Below are positions 34,230-61,393 of a stretch of 64,000 nucleotides of DNA, piece by piece. Source of the stretch: a virus; the IMG/VR virus record IMGVR_UViG_3300049846_001128, positions 20,741 to 84,740 of that record; one strand, written 5' to 3'. The notes below the pieces were generated by a model. It was given only the letters and a program-made list of their open reading frames with translations, was not told where the DNA came from and did not search any database. Position 1 is the stretch's first letter. Each line of letters starts with the position of its first letter. Position numbers and translations under genes: made by a program.

Positions 34230-34524
34230 CTAAAACGATTTTTTCAGTAAATCCGCCACGTTGGCTAAACTTTTTTTCTCTAGCTTCAAACACAGATTCT
34301 TCAAATCCATGAGCTTTACACACTGCAGCAAATACCTCAAGAACATCTGCTAGCTCTTCAAGCAAGTTTTCTGGAGAAGCTGATAAAACTTCGTTGGCCT
34401 CTTCCACAAGCTTTTCTTTTAAAAGCTGCAAATATTCAGATTGCTCAGCAATGTAAGTGTCCATAGCTCTGCCTTCTTTTTCTAAAACCATGGCAGGAAG
34501 TTTATCTCGAATAAGTTTTTTCAT
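34210..34524 (-). CDS. MazG-like nucleoside triphosphate pyrophosphohydrolase
   Basis: 'KLIRDK...KLVEEANEV...EELADVLEV...K..RGGF'. Confidence 0.85.
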   Translation of the reverse strand: MKKLIRDKLPAMVLEKEGRAMDTYIAEQSEYLQLLKEKLVEEANEVLSASPENLLEELADVLEVFAAVCKAHGFEESVFEAREKKFSQRGGFTEKIVLVGPCKK

Positions 34525-34736
34525 ACAAGTGCCTTAAGTAGTGGAGTTAATAATATAAATGCGTCTTCTTCCAGCTGTTTACAATTATCATATAGTCTTT
34601 CAGAGTAACCATAGTGTCCTCCAAAGTCAATGAAAACTCTATAGCCGCCATCATTGGTAACTTCCGATATTTCAGCAAAGTCAGGAATTTGCTCGTGGTA
34701 GTAGCGAATGAATTTATCGCCAAGTTTGTACTTCAA
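34521..34736 (-). CDS. Tag-family SH3-like small protein
   Basis: KYKLGDK...LLTPLLKALV*. Confidence 0.75.
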   Translation of the reverse strand: MKYKLGDKFIRYYHEQIPDFAEISEVTNDGGYRVFIDFGGHYGYSERLYDNCKQLEEDAFILLTPLLKALV

Positions 34737-34912
34737 AATAAAGCCTTCGTTAAATCCGTTAGTTTCACAACTTCACTTGGTCGGCATTTATAGATACAGT
34801 CATAAAAAGTAACGTAAGTAGGAGTTACTTCCTTAATTGTATAAACCTTGCCTTCAAATACACTATAACTAGGAACTATAACTTCGTCGCCAACTTTAAT
34901 TTCTTTTTCCAT
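34733..34912 (-). CDS. Tag-family SH3-like small protein (59 aa, not in ORF track)
   Basis: MEKEIKVGDEVIV...VKLTDLTKALF*. Confidence 0.75.
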   Translation of the reverse strand: MEKEIKVGDEVIVPSYSVFEGKVYTIKEVTPTYVTFYDCIYKCRPSEVVKLTDLTKALF

Positions 34913-35280
34913 TCATTCCTCTGGGCATTTTCCGCCAGTGTTTTACTTAAATGGCAACCAGACTTACACAAAGCCTGTAAGTTATCTTCGCCGCAGAATA
35001 GTCTTTTAAAATGCACGTTCCAGTCTCTGTTGCCTTGCACATCTAAAGGCACAACTGGGTCAATATGATCGACCTCAATCTTGTCTACAATAGCTGTAGG
35101 ATGGTCTAACTTTATAACGTCGATAGACCTTGCTCCAGAGTAGACAATTTGCCCACAACCTTCACACTTATAAAGTTCAGGTCCGATCTTTGCTCTTGCC
35201 TTTACGTTTTTTATCGGTTGCCACTGCCTCGCTAGTTTCCTCAAGGCTGTGTCCACCTTCGCTTGAAATCTTTTGTCCAC
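34876..35280 (-). CDS. HNH endonuclease
   Basis: CEGC...EVDHIDP...NLQALCKSGCH..KT. Confidence 0.85.
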   Translation of the reverse strand: MDKRFQAKVDTALRKLARQWQPIKNVKARAKIGPELYKCEGCGQIVYSGARSIDVIKLDHPTAIVDKIEVDHIDPVVPLDVQGNRDWNVHFKRLFCGEDNLQALCKSGCHLSKTLAENAQRNEWKKKLKLATKL

Positions 35281-35641
35281 GGAATATTTCCTTCATTAAG
35301 TCTTTTTTAAGAACTGTTAAGCCAACTTGATTGAGCTGATCAAAAGCATCAACCTGCGGCAAAGTGTTATCGCCATACCTGTGCCATTCGCCTTGCACAC
35401 AAATATAGTATGTGCCAGCTTGGTCTTGTAACAACGCTCCAGCATTAAAGGCTAGCATGGTGGCTTTAACTGGAACAATCATAAAAGTGTTGGCAGAATC
35501 GGACGGATGTCCGTTCAAAACTATCTCCAAGCTTGTTTTAACGGCTCTTATTGGTCTTTTCACGCTTTTCTCCAAGTTGGTAATGCCTAATGGCTTGTTG
35601 AATTTCTTTAACAGAAGTAAACTCCACTCTACTTTCCGCAA
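35177..35641 (-). CDS. Hypothetical protein (true start probably downstream)
   Basis: ORF track; overlaps neighbours. Confidence 0.4.
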   Translation of the reverse strand: MRKVEWSLLLLKKFNKPLGITNLEKSVKRPIRAVKTSLEIVLNGHPSDSANTFMIVPVKATMLAFNAGALLQDQAGTYYICVQGEWHRYGDNTLPQVDAFDQLNQVGLTVLKKDLMKEIFRGQKISSEGGHSLEETSEAVATDKKRKGKSKDRT

Positions 35642-35936
35642 ACAAAGTACACTCTAGGTTATAATAGTATGTGTTAATTCCAGACTCTCGCTCAAGTTGA
35701 TCGCAAAAATACTCAAACTGAGCTTGCCTTTCTTTTCGCTCATTCTCTCTTTCTAAGTAGTTCAAATATTTAGTTCTTTTATCCAGTATAGTAACGTTAT
35801 TATCAAGAGCTATTCCTAGCACTATAGTTGAGATAAAGAAGCAAATAAATAAACCACCGAAAAAATTTGCAGCTTCATCACAATTTTTTAACCGTTGCTC
35901 TAAATTTTTAATAATGTCATCTTTTGTCTTTTTCAT
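35538..35936 (-). CDS. Hypothetical membrane protein
   Basis: Single TM segment. Confidence 0.5.
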   Translation of the reverse strand: MKKTKDDIIKNLEQRLKNCDEAANFFGGLFICFFISTIVLGIALDNNVTILDKRTKYLNYLERENERKERQAQFEYFCDQLERESGINTYYYNLECTLFAESRVEFTSVKEIQQAIRHYQLGEKREKTNKSR

Positions 35937-36256
35937 TTTTTCCTCATCGCTCTATAGCCACAGGCTGATTCGCAAAGCTCCAAAGTACCAACTGGTAATT
36001 CAGACTCTTTAACTTTTGCGCCACACTTAGGGCATTCTTTATGTTGAGGCTTTACCAACTTTGGTTTTGCCACTGGTTCTTTTTTATCATGTTTTTCAAC
36101 TTCACGTAACTTCTTTTTTAACTTAGCAATTTCATTTTTTAAATCAGCTATTTCTCGTTCCAAAGCGTATTCATGCTCTAAATTTGCTTTGCGGCGGCTC
36201 ATCCTAGTCCTTTGTTGAATCTGTGATTGTGTTTCTTGACGCAGTAATCTGAACAA
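35933..36256 (-). CDS. Coiled-coil protein with C-terminal zinc ribbon
   Basis: CPKCG...CESACGY. Confidence 0.55.
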   Translation of the reverse strand: MFRLLRQETQSQIQQRTRMSRRKANLEHEYALEREIADLKNEIAKLKKKLREVEKHDKKEPVAKPKLVKPQHKECPKCGAKVKESELPVGTLELCESACGYRAMRKK

Positions 36257-36462
36257 TAAACCACTGCTGTTCCAGAATTAGACTCATAAATAAATCTATC
36301 AGTGTGTAAGTAGCTATAAATAGTAAAAGCTGCATCTTTAATTCCTAATGGTGCAATCTCAGGCTGGTTGAATACTTTGCCACATTTTGAACAAGTTACA
36401 ACTCCAGAAAGTCTGATGCTAGGAGCTTGATTGGATACTTTTCCTTCTAATATTTTGCTCAT
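36199..36462 (-). CDS. Zinc-finger protein
   Basis: CSKCGK...YCSDYC. Confidence 0.55.
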   Translation of the reverse strand: MSKILEGKVSNQAPSIRLSGVVTCSKCGKVFNQPEIAPLGIKDAAFTIYSYLHTDRFIYESNSGTAVVYCSDYCVKKHNHRFNKGLG

Positions 36463-36968
36463 TTAAATTTATACCCCTGTTCGTCAATTCTATGCTCTTC
36501 AAATCTTACCTTACCTTCAGAAATTAGTCTACGAATATTTCTCTGATTCTCACTTAATTGAGAAGTACCCATTTTCATTTCAATAAAAACAATGGATTCG
36601 TCGCCAAAATAAATGTAGTCCACGGGCTGGAATAAGGGCTTAAGCTTTTTATAATCATAAGGAAATTCAGCGTGGAATGGTAAAACTTGCTCAGATATTT
36701 GCCCAAGTCTTACAGCCTTACTTTGCTGCTCCCCTTTGAGTTTTTCAAAGTTGGCAGAAGTTTGTTCTAGTTTGTGAATAAGAGAATTGATTTCAGCCTC
36801 TTTTTTGTCTACAACCTCTCTGAAATGACTCATAGGAATTGTAGTTCCGGGCTGAGGAATTTGCCTCATTAACTCAGCCATTTGTTGAGCCTGATCTGGC
36901 TTAGCCGAAAAGAAATGCGTATATAAGGCGTAAATTAATAAGATAACTATAGCAATCGTGCTAATCAT
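36459..36968 (-). CDS. Holliday-junction-resolvase-like endonuclease (Endonuc_Holl type) with N-terminal TM
   Basis: 'GQISEQVLPF...PVDYIYF...IVFIEMKMG.SQLS..QR.IR'. Confidence 0.8.
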   Translation of the reverse strand: MISTIAIVILLIYALYTHFFSAKPDQAQQMAELMRQIPQPGTTIPMSHFREVVDKKEAEINSLIHKLEQTSANFEKLKGEQQSKAVRLGQISEQVLPFHAEFPYDYKKLKPLFQPVDYIYFGDESIVFIEMKMGTSQLSENQRNIRRLISEGKVRFEEHRIDEQGYKFK

Positions 36969-37147
36969 AATAAAGCCTCAAGTAGCGGAGTTGGACGAAT
37001 AAAATTTGTGGGATATGATAAATAAAATGTTTCTTTAAATGTAACTCGGTTTTTAGTAATTTCTTCAATAGTATAAATTGTACCAATATCAAACCAAGGA
37101 TACATGTTTACTAAAACCTTGTCACCAACTTTAAAACTACTCTGCAT
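36965..37147 (-). CDS. Tag-family SH3-like small protein
   Basis: MQSSFKVGDKV...RPTPLLEALL* (start re-assigned). Confidence 0.75.
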   Translation of the reverse strand: MQSSFKVGDKVLVNMYPWFDIGTIYTIEEITKNRVTFKETFYLSYPTNFIRPTPLLEALL

Positions 37148-37505: not shown

Positions 37506-37671
37506 CCTCCATCTGTTTTAAATCAATTAAAGCAAACTTCATTCCACCAAGGTCAAAGCCTGACGCAATGAGGAATTTTTCAAACTCAGCCACAACTTCT
37601 TCCAAACTTTCCGTACTGAAGTTAATAGCAGCTTCGCCTTGTTTGTCTTTTTTCTTAAATGTAAATTTCAT
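37381..37671 (-). CDS. Hypothetical protein with acidic tail
   Basis: 'LEEVVAEFEKFLIASGF' motif seen in phage proteins. Confidence 0.55.
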   Translation of the reverse strand: MKFTFKKKDKQGEAAINFSTESLEEVVAEFEKFLIASGFDLGGMKFALIDLKQMEVDFENELEEYFAGLGSEADDDGDEGEGSDNGNGGRGGNQNH

Positions 37672-37844
37672 TAGTTAGCCTTTTTACAAGTATATCGCTC
37701 ACCATCTACAATAACATGCTGAGTTGTTAAAGAAGCTTTTGCAACAAAGCCTTGGTAGAGGATAACACTAAAAATAGAAAATGACAACAAAATAGTTATG
37801 TAAGCTCCGATTAAAAAACTACTAAAACATTTAATAAATTTCAT
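37671..37844 (-). CDS. Small membrane protein
   Basis: ATGA-coupled to upstream tag gene; TM helix. Confidence 0.5.
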   Translation of the reverse strand: MKFIKCFSSFLIGAYITILLSFSIFSVILYQGFVAKASLTTQHVIVDGERYTCKKAN

Positions 37845-38029
37845 TCCAAAGCCTCGATTAAAGGAGTAACTGGAATGGCATGTTTTGGAAGAAAAGCCCA
37901 ATCGTAAACTTCTCCAAAATAATAATGCATTCCATCAAAACTGTTTATTCTCTGAATAGTTCCATTGAAATAAGATAAACCATAATCAGTAGCAGTAATT
38001 AAAACTCTGTCGCCAACATTGAATTTCAT
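37841..38029 (-). CDS. Tag-family SH3-like small protein
   Basis: MKFNVGDRV...PVTPLIEALE*. Confidence 0.75.
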   Translation of the reverse strand: MKFNVGDRVLITATDYGLSYFNGTIQRINSFDGMHYYFGEVYDWAFLPKHAIPVTPLIEALE

Positions 38030-38412
38030 TTCTTCGATTCTCTTTCAATTAATTTGTCTAAATAAATTTTAGCTTTTTGCAAATCCTTTACCCCGTCTTT
38101 TTCTTTATATCGCCAGATGTATTTGAAAATATTTCCTTCCAAAAAGTCCATCTCTTGGTCTAAAATAACGTCCCAACACTCAAGCTTACCCTTCTTGTTG
38201 TAACGCTTAGGCTTTTCAATGTCTTCAGAACTAGTGACAGGAATTAAAGGTTCAGCCAACTCCAAGTCACCTACATCAAAAGCTATAGTATGGCAACCAG
38301 TCATATCACACATGTAAACCATGAATTGATTCTTTTCTGGAATATATGATTTAATAACTCCACTTCTAGGGAATACTTCTCTTGTTTTAACATTATCACC
38401 AACTTTAAACAT
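38026..38412 (-). CDS. KVGD SH3-like domain fused to DUF3310-like domain
   Basis: MFKVGDNV...; 'P.RY...ECWD...FLEGNIFKYIWR...K.G..DL.KA..YL'. Confidence 0.75.
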   Translation of the reverse strand: MFKVGDNVKTREVFPRSGVIKSYIPEKNQFMVYMCDMTGCHTIAFDVGDLELAEPLIPVTSSEDIEKPKRYNKKGKLECWDVILDQEMDFLEGNIFKYIWRYKEKDGVKDLQKAKIYLDKLIERESKK

Positions 38413-38633
38413 TATTCAACTCCTAGACAAATAATAGTCAATAATTGTCTAACTCTTTCTGAACTTAAACCCACAGCGTTTGCTGTTTCTTCAATATTAT
38501 AGCCGCAAAGATAAAGCATTGCAACTCTATATTTTAAAGGATTTTTTGCCCTACCTGCGTACAAAGCCTTTTGAACATGCGCTCGACAAGGGTAGTCATA
38601 TAGTTTCTTATGTAGCCAGAAAATGAACTTCAC
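38412..38633 (-). CDS. Sigma-70 region-4-like HTH protein
   Basis: 'YNIEETANAVGLSSERVRQL'. Confidence 0.65.
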   Translation of the reverse strand: MKFIFWLHKKLYDYPCRAHVQKALYAGRAKNPLKYRVAMLYLCGYNIEETANAVGLSSERVRQLLTIICLGVE

Positions 38634-38809
38634 AACAAAGCCTCCATTAAAGGTGTTAAAGGTATTAATCTATCCAGCTCACAGTACCAAGTTAAGCCAG
38701 TGTAATAACTTGTTACAACAACCCAGCCAGATTTATCACTACTAGTAGGAAAATACTCCACAATCTCAGGAATCATGTCTGAGTGAAGTGGGAGGTAAAC
38801 CATTTTCAT
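38630..38809 (-). CDS. Tag-family small protein (59 aa, not in ORF track)
   Basis: MKMVYLPLHS...LIPLTPLMEALL*. Confidence 0.7.
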   Translation of the reverse strand: MKMVYLPLHSDMIPEIVEYFPTSSDKSGWVVVTSYYTGLTWYCELDRLIPLTPLMEALL

Positions 38810-39142: not shown

Positions 39143-39952
39143 CTATTTCTTCTTTTTTTGTGCAGCCTCGTAAGCCCTAACTGCAGAAGCTACAACTTCA
39201 GTCTTATCAAATTTAGCCAAGTTTAGGAAAAGTTCTTCAGTGGCTAACACATCAAAATTATTGTAGCGTTCCATTGATTTCCACGCTTTGATATTACCTT
39301 TCAAGCATTCGTCCCAAAGCTTAAACCCAGAAAACTCCTCATGATCTTGTTTCTTGTATTTAGTGTTAAACTTCTTAGACATGTACTCAAGCTTGTTTGA
39401 AGTAAATGCAAAGTGTTTTTTAGCCAGTAGGTAAGTATCTATCTTTTTATACTCACTTGGAACTCCTAAACCATTCTCCAAAAACTTAGCGTTGAGTTTC
39501 TTTAAATCGAAAGCCGTGGAGTTTTGCCCCAAGATTATATCAGCCTCGTCCATAAGTTTCCACAAAGGCTTTAGCAAATCTTTGTCATTTTGAATAGAGT
39601 CGCCTTTTTTTGACCTTTGATCTTTATACATAACTTTGTCGTTGTGTAACCATTTAGCTGTCCAAGAGAGTACAAACCAGTCCCGCTTAATCATGTTCAA
39701 AGGAATAGATTGATCGTATAGTCCCCAATGATAGGAAATCATTGGAGCGGTTTCAATGTCTAAAACTAGAACTTTAGGCAAGTCCTTTTCAATTTCCATA
39801 CCGTGAGTGTCAATACAGTGCTTTATAGAATCTGGAGTTCTTTTTTGCTGAAACTTGGCATTAAAAGCCTTAGCTATTTCAAACCTAGAATAGCCTTTTT
39901 TATATTGCTTTAGAACAAACTTTATCTCTCTAGGGTTCCAAGGTTGTTTCAT
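39143..39952 (-). CDS. RNase H-like (DnaQ/RNase_H_2) exonuclease with N-terminal HTH
   Basis: 'LDIET', 'QNSTAFD', 'SNKLEY', 'YNNFDV'. Confidence 0.8.
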   Translation of the reverse strand: MKQPWNPREIKFVLKQYKKGYSRFEIAKAFNAKFQQKRTPDSIKHCIDTHGMEIEKDLPKVLVLDIETAPMISYHWGLYDQSIPLNMIKRDWFVLSWTAKWLHNDKVMYKDQRSKKGDSIQNDKDLLKPLWKLMDEADIILGQNSTAFDLKKLNAKFLENGLGVPSEYKKIDTYLLAKKHFAFTSNKLEYMSKKFNTKYKKQDHEEFSGFKLWDECLKGNIKAWKSMERYNNFDVLATEELFLNLAKFDKTEVVASAVRAYEAAQKKKK

Positions 39953-39960: not shown

Positions 39961-40260
39961 TTATAATAAAGATTTTAATAAATCCGAAATTGGCTTAAGC
40001 CTTTTTTGCGGATAGTAGTTGTAGTATATGTTAGTATTATTTTTATTTAATGGCAAGCATAAATATTCATAAGGCTTTGCTTTTGGTGAAATATGAATAA
40101 CTTCACACATTTCCCCATCTAGTAATACAATGTCCCCGAGTTTATATTTAGGCTTTATGAGTTTCTTATAAAGCCAGTAGTAAGCTTCTCTTAAAGGTCT
40201 GTAATGGACTGCTATAATATTAACCAAGAGTAAAATGGCTGTAAGATGGAGAATGTTCAA
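39961..40260 (-). CDS. Tag-family SH3-like protein with N-terminal TM helix
   Basis: TM...KYKLGDIV...PISDLLKSLL*. Confidence 0.7.
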   Translation of the reverse strand: MNILHLTAILLLVNIIAVHYRPLREAYYWLYKKLIKPKYKLGDIVLLDGEMCEVIHISPKAKPYEYLCLPLNKNNTNIYYNYYPQKRLKPISDLLKSLL

Positions 40261-40387
40261 AGCTTATTCCCCAATAGAGTTAAAGTGGCAAGAAGCGTAA
40301 TGGCTTGAATTACAACCTGAGCAAATTGTAACTTTGCTTGGAACTTTTGGAGCTTGACCCTTTCTGACTGGTAATCGTGATGTTCCA

Positions 40388-40597
40388 TTATAGTAAAGCC
40401 TCCATCAAAGGAGTTAGAGGAATCCAAGGTTCTGATAAAAATGTCTCAACTACCCAACTAAGGTTTGTTACGGCTCCATAATTATAGCACAGTTTGAAAT
40501 CTACCACTGTAGTGCGTAAAGCAGTTATAACACAAGTGTCTATAGCTTTAGTTTGCGAGTTAACCCTATAATAACGTTTTCCAACTAATAATTCCAT
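40388..40597 (-). CDS. Tag-family SH3-like small protein
   Basis: MELLVGKRYY...IPLTPLMEALL*. Confidence 0.75.
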   Translation of the reverse strand: MELLVGKRYYRVNSQTKAIDTCVITALRTTVVDFKLCYNYGAVTNLSWVVETFLSEPWIPLTPLMEALL

Positions 40598-40971
40598 CTT
40601 CGCTTCTTCCCAACTCTTAAGTCAACGTGGACAAATCCTTTATTCCGTCCGTCACCAACGGCTTCAAAGTATTTTTCGCACAATAAATATAATTTGTCAA
40701 GCTTTTCTTTTGAGCTTACTGTTGGGCGAATGTCAACGGCTTTTCCAAGGCAATGCTGACTGGAAGGTGCTCCACCAATTTGCTTATTGTAAGCAGGAGA
40801 GCGATAACCAGAGGTAATTGTTAGAGACTCCCCGAATTCTTCTCTAAGTTTATCAAGTTTGTCAATCAGCTCTTGCTCAATGAAAAACTCTTTGTCAGAG
40901 CCGTTTTCAAACTCTTTGGTTGAGAAGTATTTTCCAAGTTTTTTATACTGACCTTTTTTCCAACAAATCAT
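40585..40971 (-). CDS. Peptidase M15 family (endolysin-like)
   Basis: 'ITSGYRS..YN..IGGA.SSQH..GKAVD...FVHVD'. Confidence 0.9.
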   Translation of the reverse strand: MICWKKGQYKKLGKYFSTKEFENGSDKEFFIEQELIDKLDKLREEFGESLTITSGYRSPAYNKQIGGAPSSQHCLGKAVDIRPTVSSKEKLDKLYLLCEKYFEAVGDGRNKGFVHVDLRVGKKRRWNY

Positions 40972-41156
40972 ACCAATGTCTCAATTAATGGAGTAGCTAA
41001 TATAAATCTGTGAATGTTCCAATTAGATTCTACTTCAACTAAGCTAATTAATTCATATTCCTCACTAAACACGCTTTCAATTGTATATACTTCTCCTAAA
41101 AATAAATAAGTATTGTGTGGTTTTATACAAATTACTCTATCTCCGACTTTGAACAT
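40968..41156 (-). CDS. Tag-family SH3-like small protein
   Basis: MFKVGDRV...LATPLIETLV*. Confidence 0.75.
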   Translation of the reverse strand: MFKVGDRVICIKPHNTYLFLGEVYTIESVFSEEYELISLVEVESNWNIHRFILATPLIETLV

Positions 41157-53627: not shown

Positions 53628-53628
53628 C

Positions 53629-53880: not shown

Positions 53881-53881
53881 T

Positions 53882-54217
53882 TTATTTCTCCTTTCTCAAA
53901 TGGTCTAAGTTATTTGCGTGTAACACTTTATCGAACAAAGTCATTTTAGCACGATGAGCAGCAATTGCATAGTCTTTTGTTGATAAATCTTCAATTTTCT
54001 CTACTTTCGCGGCTTTAGAAGCTGAATCGAAGGCAATTTCTACCAACTGGTAAGTTCCTTCTGCGTTTCGTACAACAGAAAAGCCAAAGCCGGGAAGGTT
54101 GCTTTCACTGGCTTCTTGCTTGGCTTCAACGCCTTGCATTTCCACAAGCTTTGCTTGGAGTTGCTCAATAATTGAGACAAGCTCCTTCTTGTTTTTTGAT
54201 TCTAAGTCTTTACTCAT
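53882..54217 (-). CDS. Hypothetical protein
   Basis: AAGGAG RBS. Confidence 0.55.
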   Translation of the reverse strand: MSKDLESKNKKELVSIIEQLQAKLVEMQGVEAKQEASESNLPGFGFSVVRNAEGTYQLVEIAFDSASKAAKVEKIEDLSTKDYAIAAHRAKMTLFDKVLHANNLDHLRKEK

Positions 54218-54230
54218 ATTTCTCCTTTGC

Positions 54231-54428
54231 TCAACTAAGAGCTTTTTCCAATTCTGTTGCTAAGCGAAATCTTGCTTGGTCGTACCAATCTGAAACTTCT
54301 ACAATAAAGACTGAATTAACTCCTACCAAACTTTCGACAGTGTATACATTACCAAGCTGTAAAGAAGGACTGTAGGCTCCTGTTGTTGGAATAACACAAA
54401 CCACTTTGTCACCGCTTTTGAAGTCCAC
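54231..54428 (-). CDS. Tag-family SH3-like small protein
   Basis: (GTG)DFKSGDKVVC...LATELEKALS*; paralog of 40968..41156. Confidence 0.75.
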   Translation of the reverse strand: MDFKSGDKVVCVIPTTGAYSPSLQLGNVYTVESLVGVNSVFIVEVSDWYDQARFRLATELEKALS

Positions 54429-55398
54429 TCGAATCTCCTCTCCAGCATAAATTAAAGAACTCACAAGGCTTTCCAAAGAAATGGCACTCTTTTGGAGAGC
54501 TTTTCTTCTGGAATTTCCTCTCGGCTATATTATGCAACACTTCATCAATTTCTGCAAATATTATTTCTTTTAAATCGTCATAAGTTTCATCTTTTAAGAT
54601 TTGCGTTCTAATCCTTGGCTCTTTGATTCTAATTTTCTTCTCCAGAACAATGTAAGAAGCTCTAGGAATATCTTCTGCTTCGCAGTAAATGTTAAGCTGA
54701 GGAGAGCGAGACACACTGTTTTCAGGGTAGGCTTTTGAGCTTGTTTTAAGATCGCAGACGAATTGAAGCTCAGGAGCGTCCGTAAAACTTGCAATAAAGT
54801 CAATTTTCCCATTTAACTCATCTCCGGCAGAGTTTGTCAACTGAATTTCTTTCTGAATGGCGTAAACCTTATGAATTTGTGGCAAAATGTCTGTCTCAAA
54901 AGCCTTTAGAAGCAATTCTCCCTTTCGGTAAAGGCTTAGCCAGTTTAGCTGGTTAAAAACAATCCTCGTCGATTCTGACAATGGTTTGTCGGCTTGAATT
55001 GCTTTGTTAGTCCTTTCCCAGAAGTCAAAGAAGTCAGAAATTCCGGGGTTTTGCCTTTGTAAATGAAGCAAGTCTTCGGCTTTTAAAATGCTCGGCTCAA
55101 AGTCTGATGCAAAATAGTCGCACAAAGGGTTTCTTTCCAGCAAAACTCCGTTCTGTTCGCGCATAGTTTTGTCGAAAACGGAATAAGCGTCGTCGGTCAG
55201 CATTAAAGAAAGCTCTCGCTCGGTTAGTTCTTCTTTCTTTTTAAGAAGGAAAAGCTCAACAGCGTTATCAATAGCAGTTCCAAAGAATAATGGAGAGTTG
55301 ATTAAAACGCCAGACAAACGCTCTTCTGAGTAAAGCCTGTAGGATTCAGAGCATTGCTTGTAGCGTTCAATTCTTGAGTGAGATATTTTTAAGGTCAA
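54409..55398 (-). CDS. PD-(D/E)XK (Cas4/RecB-like) exonuclease
   Basis: 'SHSRIERYKQC', 'GKIDF...DLKTS', 'QLNIY', C-terminal 'C...PCEF..LC'. Confidence 0.85.
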   Translation of the reverse strand: MTLKISHSRIERYKQCSESYRLYSEERLSGVLINSPLFFGTAIDNAVELFLLKKKEELTERELSLMLTDDAYSVFDKTMREQNGVLLERNPLCDYFASDFEPSILKAEDLLHLQRQNPGISDFFDFWERTNKAIQADKPLSESTRIVFNQLNWLSLYRKGELLLKAFETDILPQIHKVYAIQKEIQLTNSAGDELNGKIDFIASFTDAPELQFVCDLKTSSKAYPENSVSRSPQLNIYCEAEDIPRASYIVLEKKIRIKEPRIRTQILKDETYDDLKEIIFAEIDEVLHNIAERKFQKKSSPKECHFFGKPCEFFNLCWRGDSSGLQKR

Positions 55399-55625
55399 AT
55401 TAAAGCCTTTTCAAGATCAGTTAATTTGTGAAAAGAGTTCTGTATTTTTGTAAATTCATTTTCACTTAGTATAAATTTTTTAGGTCTTAAGTCATTCTGC
55501 CATTCGTATTCTATAATAGAGCTTGTTTTGCTAACAACAATTGCATAATGTTCACGATTGCTGCTGTAAAACATATCTCCAACTTTTATCTGGCTGAATC
55601 TGACATTTAACTCCAGCTTATCCAT
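55395..55625 (-). CDS. Tag-family SH3-like small protein
   Basis: IKVGDMF...KLTDLEKALI*. Confidence 0.75.
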   Translation of the reverse strand: MDKLELNVRFSQIKVGDMFYSSNREHYAIVVSKTSSIIEYEWQNDLRPKKFILSENEFTKIQNSFHKLTDLEKALI

Positions 55626-55972
55626 TCTCCAACCTCTCTTGTGTCAAAGTCTACCAAAAAGGCATATTTCTTGCTTTCTAGTAATTTGAATTTATAGGTA
55701 AAAGCTCCGTCCGTCAAGTAAAAGTAGCTTTTTTCTCCAATATTTTCCAAGCCAACTACAGTCAGTTTTTTAATCTTGGCTTTTTGTGACCGACGAAGCT
55801 TTCTGTTGAACTCTGTGACACTGTGCATTACAGACTTCTCGAAAAAATCACCAAGGGCAAAACTTTTTGCAAGCCAAGTAGGAATTTTATCAATGCCAAT
55901 GGATTGTTCTAGCTTGTGCTTAAAAATCACTTGGAAAATCCTAAAATAGTTGTTAAAACCCAAACGTACCAA
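55607..55972 (-). CDS. Hypothetical protein (start uncertain)
   Basis: ORF track. Confidence 0.45.
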   Translation of the reverse strand: MVRLGFNNYFRIFQVIFKHKLEQSIGIDKIPTWLAKSFALGDFFEKSVMHSVTEFNRKLRRSQKAKIKKLTVVGLENIGEKSYFYLTDGAFTYKFKLLESKKYAFLVDFDTREVGEWISWS

Positions 55973-56024
55973 GGGTAATTTATTTTGTCAAAAAGCATAC
56001 AACATAGAAGAACTAAATAAAGCA

Positions 56025-56210
56025 TTATAACTCCTTGACTTTGCTAGCGTCAATCATCAGTTGCAAAGTTCCGTTAATAACTTCTCCGTTAGCTAAGCTT
56101 AACACATCTTGCAGAGCTTGTCTATAGCCTTCGTTGTAAATGTCAATTACATCTTGGCGAGTGTATGGAAGAGAGTATTGGTATTTGTCGGCAAGTTCTT
56201 CAGCTTTCAC
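56025..56210 (-). CDS. Hypothetical protein
   Basis: GTGA-coupled to tag gene (MKAEELADKY...). Confidence 0.5.
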   Translation of the reverse strand: MKAEELADKYQYSLPYTRQDVIDIYNEGYRQALQDVLSLANGEVINGTLQLMIDASKVKEL

Positions 56211-56428
56211 ATTAAAGCCTTTATTAATTCTGTTGGCTCTGCTAATTCTTCTTCGTAAGCACAACCGTAGGCAATTTTATCATACTTATGTTTTAAATCA
56301 TACAAATAAGTTTGTCTAATTTTTGAAATAAGTACAACTTGCATAAGTTTTCCTATACAGTCTTTGTAAATTCCCGACTTACGGTTGCTAGTTATTAAAA
56401 CCCAGTCTCCTATTTGGAACTTACTCAC
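56207..56428 (-). CDS. Tag-family SH3-like small protein
   Basis: MSKFQIGDWV...EPTELIKALM*. Confidence 0.75.
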   Translation of the reverse strand: MSKFQIGDWVLITSNRKSGIYKDCIGKLMQVVLISKIRQTYLYDLKHKYDKIAYGCAYEEELAEPTELIKALM

Positions 56429-56544
56429 CTAGTCTGTCCCTGCTCTGGAATTTGTTTTTCTTGCTGCTTAACTGGAACTTCCTGTAGAGAAGAGCAAGAG
56501 CTTGAGATTAAAAATGCAAGAGCTAGAATAATTGGAATAATCAT
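56425..56544 (-). CDS. 39-aa probable lipoprotein (not in ORF track)
   Basis: AGGAG RBS; MIIPIILALAFLISSSC-SSLQEVP... Confidence 0.5.
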   Translation of the reverse strand: MIIPIILALAFLISSSCSSLQEVPVKQQEKQIPEQGQTR

Positions 56545-56554
56545 AAATTCTCCT

Positions 56555-58264
56555 TTAACCTTCACAGGCAGCGCATTGGTCTTTTGTATAATCGCTAACA
56601 GTTCCTTTTAAAACTGTCTCACTTCTTAAGTAGTATAGCCCTTTTAATCCTTTTTGCCAAGCCTCTAAATGCACTTCGTTAATATATTTTGTCGAACTTC
56701 CAGAAGTAAAGAAAAGATTAATACTCTGGCTTTGGTCAATAAACTTCTGACGCTGTGCAGCCTGATTAATAATGGCAAACTGGTTTATTTCCCTAGCCGT
56801 TTTAAAGATTTCCTTCTCTTCGCTGGTTAAGAATTTTAAGCCTTGTACTGAGCCTTGAGCCTTAATAATTTCGTCCCAAACTTCCACCGTGTTCTTACCT
56901 TTCATTTCAAGCAAAAGCTCAAGCTGTTTATTCTTGCGAATGAAAACACCCTTGGCTCCTTTAAGAGCGTAGGCGTTTGAAGTCATTGGCTCGATTGAAG
57001 CTGAATCCCCGCCACAAATAGCGGCGTTGCTAACCGTTGGCGCAAGAGCCATTGTGTGAGTGTTTCGCATTCCAAAGCCTTTGCACCATTCAGGCTCTCC
57101 AAACTCCTTAGCCATGTTTCGACTGGCTTTATAGCTTTCTTCTTTAATGAATTTAAAAATCTGAGCGTTAAGCATCATTGATTGGAACGAGTCAAAAGCA
57201 AAACCCTTGCTTTGAAGCAAAGAGTGCCAGCCCATAACTCCTAACCCAAGCATCCTTGACTTAACTGCAAATCTTACCGAAGCCTCGAAGCCTTCAATAA
57301 ACTGCGCTCTGTCAATAAACTCTTGCAAAACTCCGTCCAGAAACCAAGTGGCAAGTTCTGGGAGTGTCATACCGTTTCCAAAAACATAACTTTTCCACTC
57401 TTTCCACTTAGCCAGAGCCAATGAAGAAAGGCAACAGACAAAAGTGTGGTCTTTGTCAGTGTGTGCCACAATTTCGTTGCAAATGTTGCTCGTTTTAACG
57501 CTCAAGCCGTTTGCAGCGTAGCAAGGCGGGTTTTGATTGTTAACATTGTCAGTAAACAAAAGATAAGGCTCACCAAGCTCAACTCTGGCTTGTAGAAGCT
57601 TTTTCCAGCGGTTTCTAAGGATTGTGTCGCCGCCAATAATAGCCTTCATTTCTTCGTCAGTAATTGTTACAGCGTTGTGAATGTAGTTAACTCGTCGATT
57701 AACGTCACCAGTGGCTCTTCTAATGTCAATAAACTCATCAGCGTCTTTGTGACCAAAAGGTAAGTATAAAGCCGAGGCTCCTTTCCTAACGCCTCCCTGA
57801 CTCACAGCCAGCGTTGTAGCGTCAAAGCACTTAGCCCATGGTACAATTCCTTCAGACTTACCGTTGCCACTAATTCCATCCCCTCTTCCGCGAATATCTC
57901 CGAGGTAAATACCAACTCCCCCGCCATTCTTAGAAAGCATTGCAAGCTCGTGCTGCTTCTTAAAAATTCCAGAAACTGAATCTTCACAATGGTTTGAAAA
58001 ACAAGAAATCGGCAAGCCTCTAGTCGTTCCCATGTTGCTCAACACTGGAGAAGCTCCACCAAGCCAGCCTTTCCAAAACATTTCAAAGAAGTATGGCGCA
58101 AGTTCGGGCTTTTTTAGCCTAGCCGCAGAAGCCTCAGAAACTCGTTTCCACATAACTCTGGGAGTTTCGTTTTCGATTAAATAGCCGTTTGAAAGAATGG
58201 AAAAGCTTTCCTCTCCCATCCAAGCCGGAGCCTCGTCTTTTTCTTTAAGCTGTTCTAAAGTCAT
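56555..58264 (-). CDS. nrdA: Ribonucleotide reductase class Ia alpha subunit
   Basis: 'PISCF', 'GGGVG', 'SNICNE', 'APTVS', 'KGLYY', C-terminal CAAC. Confidence 0.95.
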   Translation of the reverse strand: MTLEQLKEKDEAPAWMGEESFSILSNGYLIENETPRVMWKRVSEASAARLKKPELAPYFFEMFWKGWLGGASPVLSNMGTTRGLPISCFSNHCEDSVSGIFKKQHELAMLSKNGGGVGIYLGDIRGRGDGISGNGKSEGIVPWAKCFDATTLAVSQGGVRKGASALYLPFGHKDADEFIDIRRATGDVNRRVNYIHNAVTITDEEMKAIIGGDTILRNRWKKLLQARVELGEPYLLFTDNVNNQNPPCYAANGLSVKTSNICNEIVAHTDKDHTFVCCLSSLALAKWKEWKSYVFGNGMTLPELATWFLDGVLQEFIDRAQFIEGFEASVRFAVKSRMLGLGVMGWHSLLQSKGFAFDSFQSMMLNAQIFKFIKEESYKASRNMAKEFGEPEWCKGFGMRNTHTMALAPTVSNAAICGGDSASIEPMTSNAYALKGAKGVFIRKNKQLELLLEMKGKNTVEVWDEIIKAQGSVQGLKFLTSEEKEIFKTAREINQFAIINQAAQRQKFIDQSQSINLFFTSGSSTKYINEVHLEAWQKGLKGLYYLRSETVLKGTVSDYTKDQCAACEG

Positions 58265-58266
58265 AA

Positions 58267-59229
58267 TTACTCCCACATTTTATCCCAGTCTAAATTACCT
58301 TTAGAATAATTCGTTTCTCTTTGAGCGAAAAAGTCTTGCTGAGTAGAGCCTTCCGTCATAACCGTAAACCATTGTAGCCTGTCTAAAGCCTCTTTGTCAA
58401 GGTTTTTCCAGTTAGACTTTAGCCCCAGCTCTTGAAGCTTAATGTTGGCTCGGTTTCTAATAAAGTTCTTCATTTCGTGCAGCGTTAATCCCTGAACGTC
58501 CCCGTCTTTGAAAGCGTTTTCCAAGAAAGCGTCTTCCAGCTCAATTGTTAGTCTTGCAGCCTCGTAAATGTCTTTCTTAAACTCGTCGGTGAAAATCTCT
58601 GGGTTTTCTTTAACGATAACTCGGAAAAGCTCACAGCCAGCTTTTGAATGCAAATCTTCATCAAGGCAAGACCAAGCGATAATTTGCCCCATTCCTTTCA
58701 TCTTGTTAAACCGGCTAAAGTTTAAAAGCACAGCAAAGCTTGAGAAAAGAGCAACTCCCTCGTTAAAAGCGGAAAAAATTGCAATAGCTTTCGCAGTGTC
58801 GGCAATTGTTTTAGCCTTGACATTCATAAGTCGATCAATCTTGGCTTTTACCGTTGGCTCGTGAAGAAATGCTTCGTAATCCTCAAGACCTAGCGATTGG
58901 TCAAGGTAGCTGTAACCATTGGCGTGAATCGCTTCAAAAGCGGCAAAAGTGGCAAACATCATTTGAAGTTCTGGCTTTTTTACTTGCTTGAGTAATCTTC
59001 CAGACCAAAAGTCATTGCCAATAAACACCTCAGTCTGAGTAAATCCTTTCAAGATTGAGCCAATTAAGTGCTTTTCTTTTTCGGTAAGGTTTACTTTCCA
59101 GTCATTAATGTCAGAAGCCATACTAACTTCTGTGTGAATCCAGTGAGATTGATTGGCTTTTAGCCAGTATTCATGGAACTGAGGATACTCGAACGGCATA
59201 AAAGCCGCTCTAGGCTTGAAAATTGACAT
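58267..59229 (-). CDS. nrdB: Ribonucleotide reductase class Ia beta subunit
   Basis: 'EAIHANGYS', 'EGVALFSSF', 'DEDLH', 'DFF..RETNY'. Confidence 0.95.
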   Translation of the reverse strand: MSIFKPRAAFMPFEYPQFHEYWLKANQSHWIHTEVSMASDINDWKVNLTEKEKHLIGSILKGFTQTEVFIGNDFWSGRLLKQVKKPELQMMFATFAAFEAIHANGYSYLDQSLGLEDYEAFLHEPTVKAKIDRLMNVKAKTIADTAKAIAIFSAFNEGVALFSSFAVLLNFSRFNKMKGMGQIIAWSCLDEDLHSKAGCELFRVIVKENPEIFTDEFKKDIYEAARLTIELEDAFLENAFKDGDVQGLTLHEMKNFIRNRANIKLQELGLKSNWKNLDKEALDRLQWFTVMTEGSTQQDFFAQRETNYSKGNLDWDKMWE

Positions 59230-59236
59230 ATCCCTC

Positions 59237-59512
59237 CTATTCTAAAGCTTTTTCCAACTCTGTCTCTTTTACCACTCTCACTATTTTATCAGGGTTTTTA
59301 TAATTTTCAATCTTTTTTAGCACTTCCTTTAACGATTCCAATGACTTTTGTTTACAATCTCTGTGGACATATACCTGAACACTTAACCAATTATAAGTGT
59401 AAAAGCTCGTCGGATTAAGGTCCAAATAAGCTGGAACAGGAATAAACCCAAGCAAAAGCCTTTGATAGCCATAAGTTCCATCTCCAAACTGGACAATTCT
59501 TCCTTTTTTCAC
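59237..59512 (-). CDS. Tag-bearing protein with non-KVGD domain
   Basis: (GTG)KKGRIVQF...VKETELEKALE*. Confidence 0.6.
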   Translation of the reverse strand: MKKGRIVQFGDGTYGYQRLLLGFIPVPAYLDLNPTSFYTYNWLSVQVYVHRDCKQKSLESLKEVLKKIENYKNPDKIVRVVKETELEKALE

Positions 59513-59739
59513 AGCAGTGCCTTTGTTAAGTCTGTAAGCCTTGACCAGCCCCATTTGTTGAAGTTTTCTTCTGTGGCAGAAGTTATAGCTATCGTGCTTG
59601 GGTTTTGTGGACTCCACTTCGCTTCTCGAATGCTTTCCCATTTATAGGCGATAAACCCATCCCTCACAGAAACAACAGTGGCTACAAAATCCCTGCCTGA
59701 GTTAAACCATTGGTCGCCAACTTGTATTTTCCAACTCAT
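59509..59739 (-). CDS. Tag-family SH3-like small protein
   Basis: IQVGDQW...RLTDLTKALL*. Confidence 0.75.
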   Translation of the reverse strand: MSWKIQVGDQWFNSGRDFVATVVSVRDGFIAYKWESIREAKWSPQNPSTIAITSATEENFNKWGWSRLTDLTKALL

Positions 59740-59773
59740 AGGTTTTTCCTTTTGAAAAACTCAGCTTTGAGTA

Positions 59774-60193
59774 TCAAAGCAAAGCCTTTCCAAGCTCAGT
59801 TCTGCTTAGCATAAACTCCGTTTTGTCCTTGTATCTCACTCCGGCTACGAAATAGCCTCTCATAGATGAACTACTGAAACTAAAATACCAAACTGAAGGG
59901 TCATTCTTTACTTTATCCAAATCAACCAGCCTCTCGTAACTTTTCCAAGCTTCTATTGGATTTCCTTTAATGCCGACAATGCTCTCTTTGTTTAGGGTAA
60001 ATCCAGCCGCTTCTAGCCTAGCCTTTGTTTCCTCTGACTCGTCGTGTTTTAAGAGCCTATAAACTTTTGCACAATAATAAGTGTAAGTTCCGACCACAGG
60101 CTTCCCAATTAAATCCTTACAAACTGGAACTTCCCTTTTCTCTAGGAATTTGTCAAGGGAAGATTTATTAGTTTTATATGGTTTTTCTTTCAT
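59774..60193 (-). CDS. Tag-bearing protein (139 aa)
   Basis: ...LSRTELGKALL*. Confidence 0.7.
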   Translation of the reverse strand: MKEKPYKTNKSSLDKFLEKREVPVCKDLIGKPVVGTYTYYCAKVYRLLKHDESEETKARLEAAGFTLNKESIVGIKGNPIEAWKSYERLVDLDKVKNDPSVWYFSFSSSSMRGYFVAGVRYKDKTEFMLSRTELGKALL

Positions 60194-60227
60194 AGGTTTT
60201 TCCTTTTGAAAAGCAAGGCTTTTATTC

Positions 60228-60458
60228 TCAAAGTAGAGCCTTTAATAGTGGAGTTATTCTTATCCATCCTGCATTGGCTAGTCTTTCGTCGTCAAAATCA
60301 TAAAATTTCTCAGCGTAATTTGCAAATTCATCTCCATTGTCTACTCTATACCATTTCCATGAGAATGAACTTTTAGTTACCTCAGTCACAACTCCCTTAA
60401 ACTTTCGAGACTCGTCAAGGAAACAGTCTCCAACCTTCAACTCTCTAATCCAGTTCAC
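60228..60458 (-). CDS. Tag-family SH3-like small protein
   Basis: LKVGDCF...RITPLLKALL*. Confidence 0.75.
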   Translation of the reverse strand: MNWIRELKVGDCFLDESRKFKGVVTEVTKSSFSWKWYRVDNGDEFANYAEKFYDFDDERLANAGWIRITPLLKALL

Positions 60459-60700
60459 AGTAAAGCCTCGGTCAATTCAGTTAGTGGGATTAATTGAGCA
60501 GAAACTTCTTCCCATATAATAGCTGAAACTAAGCTGTGCCAGCCTAAGCCTCGGTACATATCATTGGAACTTCCTCTGCGTTCAGAATATTCGTAGTGAA
60601 TGATATAATTGTCAATTTTGGTTATTGCTAAGGTACTGTAGTCAGTGTCGAAGTATTTCATTCCTTCAACTACGTAAAACCTATCTCCTACTTTTGGCAT
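60455..60700 (-). CDS. Tag-family SH3-like small protein
   Basis: MPKVGDRF...PLTELTEALL*. Confidence 0.75.
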   Translation of the reverse strand: MPKVGDRFYVVEGMKYFDTDYSTLAITKIDNYIIHYEYSERRGSSNDMYRGLGWHSLVSAIIWEEVSAQLIPLTELTEALL

Positions 60701-60780
60701 AACTCTCCAATTTACTAAGGACAAATCCCTTAGCCACGGCTAATAATAGCACAAGTATGACAAACAGTGCAAGAGAAATC

Positions 60781-60978
60781 TTAGTAAAGAGCTTGTATAA
60801 GTTCCGTAGCGCGGATGAAATCCAGTTTGAAAGTTTCAAGCCTAACTGATGAATTGAGTCCGAAGTTATACTCATAGAAAATATAATTATCCCTTATTAA
60901 AGTTATTCTAACAGGCTGGTTTTGGCATGAAGGAGCATAGCGTTCACCAATGTTTATATAAATATCTCCAACTTTCAT
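60781..60978 (-). CDS. Tag-family SH3-like small protein
   Basis: MKVGDIY...RATELIQALY*. Confidence 0.75.
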   Translation of the reverse strand: MKVGDIYINIGERYAPSCQNQPVRITLIRDNYIFYEYNFGLNSSVRLETFKLDFIRATELIQALY

Positions 60979-61181
60979 AACAAAGCTCGCATTAATTCTG
61001 TGGCTAAAGTAGCGTCAGTAACGGGAATTTCTTTGTCTTTTAAGTCGCCATCGAGAAATTTAACCTTGTACTTATTTTGAAAATTTTTATTACCTCTAAC
61101 TTCAGTAACTACCGCTAGCTTATTGTCAAAGCTTTTAAAGTACTTATCCTTAGTAATTACAAAATCGCCAACTTTAATCAT
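60975..61181 (-). CDS. Tag-family SH3-like small protein
   Basis: MIKVGDFV...LATELMRALL*. Confidence 0.75.
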   Translation of the reverse strand: MIKVGDFVITKDKYFKSFDNKLAVVTEVRGNKNFQNKYKVKFLDGDLKDKEIPVTDATLATELMRALL

Positions 61182-61393
61182 AAAAGAGCCTCTATTAGAG
61201 GAGTTACTTGTATTAAACGATTATCATAGTAAATCTTCGATTTATAACCTACAAGTGAATCATGTTTTGATGCTATTAAATAACAGAAATTGTAGCATTT
61301 CTTAATCTCATCATACCCTGTTATCTCAATTAAAACAATTTCACCATCATGTCCCCAGTGAGGGTCTAGGTACTTCTTACCTATTTCTAGCAT
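61178..61393 (-). CDS. Tag-family SH3-like small protein
   Basis: MLEIGKKY...QVTPLIEALL*. Confidence 0.75.
   Translation of the reverse strand: MLEIGKKYLDPHWGHDGEIVLIEITGYDEIKKCYNFCYLIASKHDSLVGYKSKIYYDNRLIQVTPLIEALL

Follow-up and report, generated by a model that had tools for sequence, protein, structure and literature searches.

The window analysed here is a 64,000-nucleotide stretch, bases 20741-84740, of a linear virus record of 84,740 bp (IMG/VR record IMGVR_UViG_3300049846_001128), and our subject is a set of about 35 small genes, apparently of the early region, which are arranged head to tail and each of which ends in a short C-terminal helix motif, hereafter called the tag. No near relative of the record was found among 50,697 deposited phage records, and its family-B DNA polymerase is at most ~28% identical to the polymerases of deposited phages. 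From 31.8 to 64 kb the window is a minus-strand block of replication, recombination, and accessory genes, which encodes the polymerase, a DnaB-like helicase, an Erf annealing protein, a PD-(D/E)XK nuclease, both ribonucleotide reductase chains, a LAGLIDADG endonuclease, and a DUF2201 peptidase/VWA protein. Because this block resumes on the same strand at the opposite end of the record, circular permutation of the genome, if it applies, would probably make the early region one continuous stretch.

The strict form of the tag, [T/S]-[P/D/E]-L-x-x-[A/S/T/G]-L-x-stop (positions are counted back from the stop, -8 to -1), ends 35 of the 397 minus-strand stop-to-stop frames of at least 40 codons in the whole 84.7-kb record, as against 0 of 348 plus-strand frames. 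Thirty of the 35 tags lie inside the window, from 34521 to 61393, and looser variants add four or five more. Each junction with the next gene was classified by geometry alone, the Shine-Dalgarno (SD) sequence being ignored: the next start was taken to be whichever ATG, GTG, or TTG came first near the stop and opened a frame of at least 38 codons. By this rule 24 of the 35 tags are overlapping (the next start lies at -7, -4, -1, or 0, counted from the stop's end), and the other 11 are separate (start 7 to 56 nt downstream). The tags of the window are listed below with the peptide, the codon at position -4, and the gene or open reading frame (ORF) opened by the predicted next start; the spacer is counted in nt from the SD-like core to that start.

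34521-34547 (-): TPLLKALV-stop, AAG; ATGA overlap, opens gene 34210-34524; AAGG, spacer 7
34733-34759 (-): TDLTKALF-stop, AAG; TTGA overlap, opens tag gene 34521-34736; AAGG, spacer 7
36965-36991 (-): TPLLEALL-stop, GAG; ATGA overlap, opens gene 36459-36968; GAGG, spacer 7
37841-37867 (-): TPLIEALE-stop, GAG; ATGA overlap, opens ORF 37671-37844; GAGG, spacer 7
38630-38656 (-): TPLMEALL-stop, GAG; GTGA overlap, opens gene 38412-38633; GGAGG, spacer 7
39961-39987 (-): SDLLKSLL-stop (TAA), AAA; separate AAGGAA site, ATG 8 nt downstream opens gene 39143-39952
40388-40414 (-): TPLMEALL-stop (TAA), GAG; TAATG overlap, opens 43-codon ORF 40257-40388; GGAGG, spacer 10
40968-40994 (-): TPLIETLV-stop, GAG ACA; ATGA overlap, opens gene 40585-40971; no 4-nt SD core
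42026-42052 (-): SDLEKALL-stop (TAA), AAG; separate AAGGAA site, ATG 7 nt downstream opens gene 41137-42018
42238-42264 (-): SELMLALI-stop (TAG), CTA; separate AGGAGG site, ATG 8 nt downstream opens tag gene 42026-42229
45170-45196 (-): SPLLKALE-stop, AAG; on a non-SH3, helical-looking protein; ATGA overlap, opens gene 44973-45173
47850-47876 (-): TPLMESLL-stop, GAG AGC; ATGA overlap, opens family-B DNA polymerase 45397-47853; GGAG, spacer 8
48059-48085 (-): TPLIEALL-stop, GAG; GTGA overlap, opens tag gene 47850-48062
48501-48527 (-): TDLIKALF-stop (TAA), AAG; TAATG overlap, opens gene 48253-48501; AAGG, spacer 10
49561-49587 (-): TDLEKALL-stop, AAG; separate AAAGGAAAA site, ATG 18 nt downstream opens gene 48691-49542
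49897-49923 (-): TELEKALA-stop, AAG; TTGA overlap, opens 47-codon ORF 49757-49900 (uncertain gene)
50127-50153 (-): TDLIGALL-stop, GGA GCT giving AGGAG; TTGA overlap, opens tag gene 49897-50130
50383-50409 (-): SELEKALL-stop, AAG; 34-nt spacer (hairpin and T-run), own site, ATG opens tag gene 50127-50348; repeat D6
51619-51645 (-): SELLTALN-stop (TAA), ACA; separate AGGAG site, ATG 10 nt downstream opens DnaB-like helicase 50598-51608
54231-54257 (-): TELEKALS-stop, AAA; separate AAAGGAG site, ATG 13 nt downstream opens gene 53882-54217
55395-55421 (-): TDLEKALI-stop, AAG; TTGA overlap, opens PD-(D/E)XK nuclease 54409-55398
56207-56233 (-): TELIKALM-stop, AAG; GTGA overlap, opens ORF 56025-56210
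59237-59263 (-): TELEKALE-stop (TAG), AAA; separate AGGAGG site, ATG 7 nt downstream opens ribonucleotide reductase small chain 58267-59229
59509-59535 (-): TDLTKALL-stop, AAG; GTGA overlap, opens tag gene 59237-59512
59774-59800 (-): TELGKALL-stop, AAG; on a 139-aa non-SH3 protein; next ATG 34 nt downstream; 3' end of tag is the 5' arm of a terminator-like hairpin
60228-60254 (-): TPLLKALL-stop, AAG; 34-nt spacer, own site, ATG opens gene 59774-60193; repeat D6; fold not significant
60455-60481 (-): TELTEALL-stop, GAG; GTGA overlap, opens tag gene 60228-60458; relatives from other sources start at the same residue with Met
60781-60807 (-): TELIQALY-stop (TAA), CAA; no overlapping start, next candidate TTG 56 nt downstream
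60975-61001 (-): TELMRALL-stop, CGA; ATGA overlap, opens tag gene 60781-60978; no SD core
61178-61204 (-): TPLIEALL-stop, GAG; ATGA overlap, opens tag gene 60975-61181

Two further features of the block are referred to below.

49543-50598 (-): variable array, here of four tag genes and one 47-codon ORF, lying between helicase and 283-aa gene
52799-53425 (-): Erf-family single-strand annealing protein (context only)

At the overlapping junctions codon -4 is GAG in nine tags and AAG in ten, and never GAA or AAA; the others are GGA, CGA, AGA, GTG, and GTA. The GGA makes AGGAG, and two GTN codons at this position are preceded by GAG, which places GAGG one codon earlier. At the separate junctions codon -4 is AAG (five), AAA (three), CAA, ACA, or CTA. 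[quoted passage not shown] Before any G-starting codon in gene bodies the share is 22%, as against 35% overall; this avoidance of internal GAGG and AAGG suggests that the host is strongly SD-dependent, and it makes the 19/19 more striking. The same tags provide an internal control, in which Glu at -7 and -5 is written GAA 17 times and GAG six times, two of these six forming GAGG with the next GTN where the motif is displaced by one codon. An SD-like core (GAGG, AAGG, GGAG, or AGGA) was found 3 to 11 nt before the start in 21 of the 24 overlapping tags and at 11.4% of random internal positions (7239/63732), and the spacer is 7 nt in 17 of these 21.

All twelve coordinates and codon strings quoted in the first-pass annotation are present in the sequence as written. 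The stop-overlapping starts at 36965, 37841, 38630, 47850, 48059, 50127, and 55395 were confirmed, including the one said to begin the polymerase (47850; a family-B enzyme of 818 codons from the overlapping ATG) and the one said to begin an exonuclease (55395; the next gene encodes the PD-(D/E)XK nuclease). Members followed by a separate site do keep the peptide with other codons (AAA at 39961, 54231, and 59237, CTA at 42238, and ACA at 51619); the five separate junctions that have AAG (42026, 49561, 50383, 59774, and 60228) had been left out.

The peptide is under a constraint of its own. Leu at -6 and -2 is invariant in all 35 tags and is encoded by five and six codons, respectively, of both the TTR and the CTN kinds; Thr/Ser at -8 is written with six codons, and Ala occupies -3 in 32 of 35 tags. 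Because these residues are kept despite mixed codons, with little identity beyond the tag, selection on the protein must hold the tag peptide, which does not merely follow from conservation of a nucleotide element. At position -4 the residue varies (K, E, V, R, L, G, T, or Q), and it is there that the needs of the next gene appear to show up.

The proteins that carry the tag belong to a widespread yet unnamed family, because about 50 of the 78 small proteins matched by their profile come from other genomes. That profile search, run against 1.84 billion representatives, gave 150 matches at E <= 0.001, and nearly all of the 78 small proteins among them end in the same helix. By manual reading, 26 of the 30 tag proteins of the window have a K-V-G-D-like motif near the N-terminus and were read as SH3-like barrels; the motif is absent from 38630, 42238, 45170, and 59774. 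When 37841-38029 was modelled with AlphaFold from 23 aligned members, the model (pLDDT 87) showed five strands and, at residues 56-61, a terminal helix. In this it would resemble the small SH3-like and KOW-like β-barrels of phages that are filed in ‘hypothetical’ clusters; Foldseek searches of PDB and BFVD gave weak SH3/KOW-like matches, with best E-values of 0.018 and 0.003, respectively, the top ones being NdhS/Ssl0352, PsaE, KOW domains, and uncharacterised phage proteins (TM ~0.6-0.75). The likeness is limited in that no match reached E 0.001 and four of the 30 window tags stand on proteins without the K-V-G-D-like motif. Pfam and PHROGs searches of the tag proteins gave no family at cut-off and sub-threshold SH3-like matches for 10 proteins, and a protein atlas returned unnamed viral clusters only. 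When the last nine residues were removed, 13 of the 35 tag proteins matched another one at 29-45% identity (33-39% for the main pairs), none of them adjacent, and these paralogues are old. Recent tandem duplication was ruled out as the origin of the window array, since the pairs are few, 29-45% identical, and non-adjacent. Literature searches, in whose scope supplementary tables were not included, turned up neither this protein family nor any peptide tag with a second role as ribosome site.

A search of viral contigs with the polymerase identified four relatives, L002, L003, L004, and L005 (71, 69, 78, and 80% polymerase identity, respectively), whose gene order is collinear with the window. 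Their tags are written in different dialects: tags of the window end in …KALL ([E/K]-A) and the others in …KELL, …ALEGL, or …KLWRLDE. In L004 and L005 the tag is S-[S/P]-L-x-[E/K/R]-E-L-x, with AAG GAG, GAG GAG, or AGG GAG at overlaps and GAA GAA before a separate TAGGAG site. In L002 it is …E-M-x-x-A-L-E-G-L, with TTG GAG GGN plus NTGA at overlaps (GGAGGG) and GAA GGT at two near, non-overlapping junctions. The L003 tag, …P-[I/T]-L-[V/I]-K-L-W-R-L-D-x, obtains GGAGA from TGG AGA, and GAT-G gives an ATG 8 to 20 nt before the stop; seven of the eight tags with W-R(AGR) have an overlapping ATG, and in all three with W-Q(CAA) the start lies 18-28 nt downstream. The lineage-specific residues are those over the predicted ribosome site, and the front half, [T/S/H]-x-[L/I/M], is common to all. 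Same-place or homologous genes wear the dialect of their own genome, as seen for window 39961 and L005 15958-16257 (33% identity over 93 residues), window 48501 and L005 9239-9538, and window 54231 and L002 9088-9351, and also for the N-W-I-[R/K]-E-L-K-V-G-D subfamily, which ends in …ALL, …ELL, or …VLL according to the genome.

Two matched cases show the codon and the junction type changing together. At 39961 the window has AAA and a separate site, whereas the L005 and L004 homologues have AAG and an NTGA overlap; at 54231 it again has AAA and a separate site, whereas the same-place tag in L004 and L005 has AGG GAG and a GTGA overlap. When the five genomes are pooled, the final seven codons contain an SD-like 4-mer at 49 of 59 overlapping versus 7 of 21 separate junctions (p = 5e-5); five tags were excluded because no ORF follows them, and the count is conservative because the AGGTG of Q-V-L-S endings was not scored as SD. 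The overlapping starts correspond to conserved N-termini, the polymerase starting at the same residue in L004 and L005, the N-terminus of the nuclease (54409-55398) aligning with an ATG start in L003, and members of one tag subfamily in relatives from other sources having Met at the residue where the window gene would begin.

A second search, of metagenome contigs with the helicase, gave 23 loci, of which one, L034, duplicates the L005 record and was set aside. In the other 22 there are 76 tags of the …E-L-x dialect, representing 68 different 75-nt contexts, and stop and start overlap at 57 of these 68. Codon -4 has G as its third base at 44 of 57 overlapping versus 0 of 8 separate junctions (p = 4e-5); for Glu, Lys, and Arg(AGR) alone the figures are 27/33 versus 0/5 (p = 9e-4), against a background of 37% (1640/4430), and an SD 4-mer is present at 39 of 57 versus 0 of 8 (p = 3e-4). 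A polymerase-profile scan added 11 more distant loci; in the six of them that were covered (L021, L022, L023, L024, L026, and L028; polymerase 40-50% identical) no shared ending was seen among ORFs of at most 140 residues with G-[DEKQN] near the N-terminus. The observation is confirmed as real, statistically strong, and reproducible in relatives. The proposal that selection acts on both the peptide and the ribosome-binding site agrees with these data, in that Leu and Thr/Ser are kept with many codons and the bias at -4 is seen only at overlapping starts, a pattern repeated in the relatives.

Tag genes vary strongly in presence and absence among relatives, by 0 to 7 at one place, with boundaries at NTGA junctions, an outcome that the first-pass annotation had asked for as a check on its view of the genes as plug-in cassettes. 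Between the helicase and the 283-aa gene, which is conserved, 16 relatives have 0, 1, 2, 3, 4, or 7 tag genes.

0 tag genes: L031, L039, L005
1 tag gene: L032, L033, L038, L004, L003
2 tag genes: L036, L047
3 tag genes: L002, L040, L046
4 tag genes: the window
7 tag genes: L035

All seven in L035 are joined by 4-nt overlaps. The polymerase is preceded by two tag genes in the window and by one each in L004 and L005, but L002 and L003 have no tag gene there. L005 has exactly one additional tag gene relative to L004, and the extra DNA runs from just after GTGA to ATGA; this and the difference between the window and L004/L005 before the polymerase are two single-gene indels bounded exactly NTGA to NTGA. 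A mosaic boundary is seen between L036 and L037, where the helicase end is 95% identical (140/147), the first tag gene body 46% (69/149), and the second gene 85%, while the tag of the second gene with its ATGA is 96% identical (43/45) and the sequence immediately after it 31% (25/80). Same-place tag genes are 35-50% identical or unrecognisable, compared with 44-84% for the untagged 83-aa neighbour. A hyperplastic region thus has its seams at the tag junctions. In some relatives the hot spot between helicase and 283-aa gene also contains unrelated untagged ORFs, namely in L004 (7725-8294, 189 codons), L002 (1945-2601, 218 codons), and L047 (807-1088, 93 codons).

We consider it very probable that these junctions represent ordinary translational coupling laid over a genuine peptide motif, in a design that lets genes come and go. 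At the 24 junctions where the next start would overlap the stop as NTGA or TAATG, the ribosome site of the next gene must lie inside the tag because the start overlaps the stop. This site would be spelled by codon -4 together with the base that opens the Ala codon at -3, GAG-GCN giving GAGG and AAG-GCN giving AAGG, usually 7 nt before the start. Selection for the downstream gene would then fix both the residue at -4 (Glu, Lys, or Gly as GGA) and its G-ending synonymous codon, the Thr/Ser and Leu positions would be kept by selection on the peptide, and position -4 would be free at junctions whose ribosome site stands apart, after the stop. Coupling would proceed by reinitiation, or by nearby initiation, at the intragenic SD site. 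Since each tag gene ends with a ready ribosome site and start, we propose that whole genes may be added, removed, or replaced at NTGA without breaking downstream expression, and this cassette reading is consistent with clear comparative evidence. We infer, in short, that ribosomes use these motifs as binding sites, that translation is coupled, and that gain and loss of genes can be tolerated because of how the junctions are built.

An intragenic ribosome site in the upstream gene is described as general in prokaryotes (PMC6728339; PMC4943179). Coupling of overlapping gene pairs through an intragenic SD motif by termination-reinitiation was reported by Huber et al. (2019; PMC6728339), and the tag junctions resemble those pairs, as described there, in their ATGA, GTGA, TTGA, and TAATG overlaps, in the SD core within the last upstream codons, and in the canonical spacing. 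SD-like hexamers were reported to be avoided within genes and enriched at C-terminal ends, notably before closely following genes (Diwan and Agashe, 2016; PMC4943179), and likewise SD-like strings are here avoided inside genes (22% vs 35%) and enriched at the ends. The coupling pattern itself is already established. Unlike the known coupled pairs, the SD codons here occupy a fixed position of a motif common to about 35 genes, every related lineage spells an SD of its own through a motif ending peculiar to it, and the coupling is predicted.

If this interpretation is correct, the tag would be a clean natural case of a ribosome-binding site shaping a protein motif, in the synonymous codon, the residue, and even the length of a shared ending, which would vary according to where the next gene starts and how strong that start is. 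It would also give a simple architectural reason for the stacking of small, fast-evolving accessory genes, each of which would carry the expression signals of its successor. For annotation, GTG and TTG starts that overlap the preceding stop probably deserve trust in such phages, and the part of a conserved C-terminal motif that is selected as peptide should be separated from the part selected as ribosome-binding site before function is deduced.

Several points weigh against this interpretation. Five of the eight Glu/Lys codons at separate junctions are still AAG, which is not different from background (p = 0.11), and because of these the within-genome contrast of G-ending codons at -4 between overlapping and separate junctions is modest (Fisher p = 0.019). 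Three of the 24 overlapping tags lack a 4-nt core (40968, 60975, and one upstream of the window), and 13 of the 57 overlapping metagenome junctions have a third base other than G at -4. Paralogues and orthologues are not independent samples and the p-values are optimistic; moreover, the starts are predicted from geometry and ORF length. Part of the choice between Glu and Lys at -4 may be made at the level of the peptide, given its covariation with -7: Pro at -7 occurs with Glu at -4 in 8 of 12 tags (manual reading), Asp or Glu at -7 goes with Lys at -4, and the overlapping class takes in 11 of 12 Pro-type versus 13 of 23 Asp/Glu-type tags (p = 0.055). Finally, an SD-like core at 3-11 nt is present at 28 of 43 untagged overlapping junctions of the record, as compared with 21 of 24 tags (Fisher p = 0.08). 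The intragenic ribosome site is generic in this genome and not special to tags, and since untagged genes show the same embedding, dual coding does not explain the existence of the tag. The interpretation of the first-pass annotation is in this respect only partly supported: its two layers of selection stand, and the embedded site, being generic, gives no reason for the tag.

It is a serious possibility, to which we would give a little less than an even chance, that tag DNA is in addition a substrate for recombination, whereby the short imperfect homology of tag ends and K-V-G-D starts would allow Erf and the nuclease, or host enzymes, to exchange, duplicate, or delete whole genes. The same process would homogenise the 3' half of the tag within a genome and so produce the dialects; it would be a coding analogue of the PeSL elements discussed below, and it is compatible with coupling, which it extends. 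Repeat families D2-D11, of 24-39 nt and 65-88% identity, coincide with tag ends, the single-gene indels run exactly from NTGA to NTGA, the body swapped between L036 and L037 (46%) lies between a similar 5' end and tag with similarity ceasing after the next ATGA, and same-place tag genes carry the dialect of their own genome. The Erf protein and the nuclease at 54409-55398 are the phage's own recombination functions, and PeSL-mediated shuffling is documented (PMC2839356). However, exact boundaries do not reveal the mechanism, because under any mechanism selection would keep only the events that preserve the junction; the identity of tag DNA is low for homologous recombination, the paralogues of this genome appear old and are non-adjacent, and no supported tag-to-tag joint was found in the contigs of four runs (X1-X4; two samples with phage), contigs being assemblies from which rare variants are dropped. 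For the same reasons the idea that plug-in cassettes explain the dispersal of the tag genes stands only in part: the indel and mosaic boundaries do fall at junctions, but the paralogues are old, and no supported tag-to-tag joint was seen in the contigs.

A stronger version, which we regard as possible but doubtful, would make the tag a self-propagating junction module, with a front half that is a peptide signal for a partner, a back half that co-evolves with the next ribosome site, and a 25-40 nt patch of homology that serves gene shuffling, duplication, and homogenisation. If so, the dialects would represent concerted evolution by recombination at a translational signal, and the tag would be the coding counterpart of PeSL, building arrays of 0 to 7 genes at hot spots. 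Known C-terminal address or degradation tags, such as ssrA-like degrons and clamp-binding C-termini, are peptides recognised by a defined reader protein.

The closest published analogue of this cassette behaviour is the PeSL-mediated modular shuffling of T4-type phages (PMC2839356). Both systems have a short repeated expression signal bordering small non-essential genes in hyperplastic regions, with indels or replacements between relatives bounded by the repeats (PMC2839356). PeSLs differ in being intergenic promoter-terminator units that act on transcription, whereas the repeat here is coding and its predicted signal acts on translation; furthermore, recombination between repeats and mini-circles were shown for PeSLs (PMC2839356), whereas the tag system is known from sequence comparison. 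Being coding, the tag repeat is not an intergenic sigma-70 promoter with terminator stem-loop of the PeSL type; only three 73-nt repeat copies have an intergenic hairpin, significant in one. A further reference on PeSL cassettes is Comeau et al. (2014; PMC4122927).

The 73-nt repeat (D6; 50345-50417, 59736-59808, and 60190-60262; 62-100% identity) consists of a tag end, a 34-nt spacer, and a ribosome site. At 59774 the last codons of the tag make up the 5' arm of a hairpin that resembles a terminator and has a T-run after it (-22.4 kcal/mol, z -3.5, 0 of 200 shuffles as good); the fold at 50383 is weaker (z -1.65) and that at 60228 is not significant. As a guess, such hairpin use could explain why AAG is kept at some separate junctions. 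This double use, and the fact that lineage differences fall on the ribosome-site codons, would be expected if the tag worked at the nucleotide level only, as ribosome site, start, terminator arm, or recombination site, with a functionless peptide as by-product. We find this improbable. The most conserved residues (Thr/Ser at -8, Leu at -6 and -2) lie outside the SD core and are kept through synonymous and TTR/CTN changes, the same residues are kept where the junction has its own ribosome site, nearly all small profile matches share the helix ending, and the terminal helix of the AlphaFold model is confident.

Inheritance of the GAG/AAG excess from one founder with a G-ending codon, the junctions being copied along, could be suggested by the paralogy of the genes and the repeat families of tag DNA, but it is largely refuted here and very hard to credit, because neighbouring synonymous sites are scrambled (five to six Leu and six Thr/Ser codons, Glu at -7 and -5 mostly GAA), AAA occurs at 3 of 8 separate versus 0 of 19 overlapping junctions, same-place genes change the codon along with the junction type, and the association recurs in a different dialect at 22 other loci. 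Equally slight is the chance that the SD-like cores serve some other role, such as an elongation pause before termination or an mRNA structure that hides the site: two tags (61189-61201 and 48070-48082) can indeed pair the CCTCT of their Pro-Leu codons with AGAGG, but the core stands at a fixed canonical distance from the start of a conserved ORF, and predicted accessibility is equal across junction classes. Masking of the SD in a hairpin until the upstream gene is translated was likewise rejected as a general feature, the mean unpaired probability of the SD region being 0.53 at tag overlaps, 0.47 at separate tag junctions, 0.47 at untagged overlaps, and 0.54 at untagged separate junctions.

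Several minor observations concern the surroundings of the tag genes. There looks to be strain heterogeneity around one tag gene at 54014-54562: two alternative 118-nt contigs cover 54014-54131 with 16 differences, in what is probably the source run and in a second, independent sample, and a low-depth X1 contig replaces or skips 54212-54562, which comprises tag gene 54231-54476 and the 3' end of the nuclease gene. Joints away from tag ends were a weak one from 52079 to 60196 in X4 (side 23, depth 2.8) and three in X1 classed as ‘between: not known.’ Among the relatives, the polymerase of L005 (10001-12465) is split into two ORFs of 469 and 307 codons about 130 nt apart, which may reflect a frameshift, an intervening element, or an assembly error, whereas L004 and the window have a single ORF of ~820 codons. 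L003 has among its tag genes a 64-codon ORF (3522-3716) that is nearly all repeated M/R/K-V-S-S peptide. At the upstream end of the tag-gene block of the window are the LAGLIDADG homing-endonuclease gene (61387-62202) and the DUF2201 metallopeptidase/VWA gene (62202-63410). Beyond them, at the extreme end of the record (63673-63996), a 12-nt tandem repeat is present in at least 17 copies, 66-100% identical to the reference copy, and forms a repetitive open frame when read on the minus strand.

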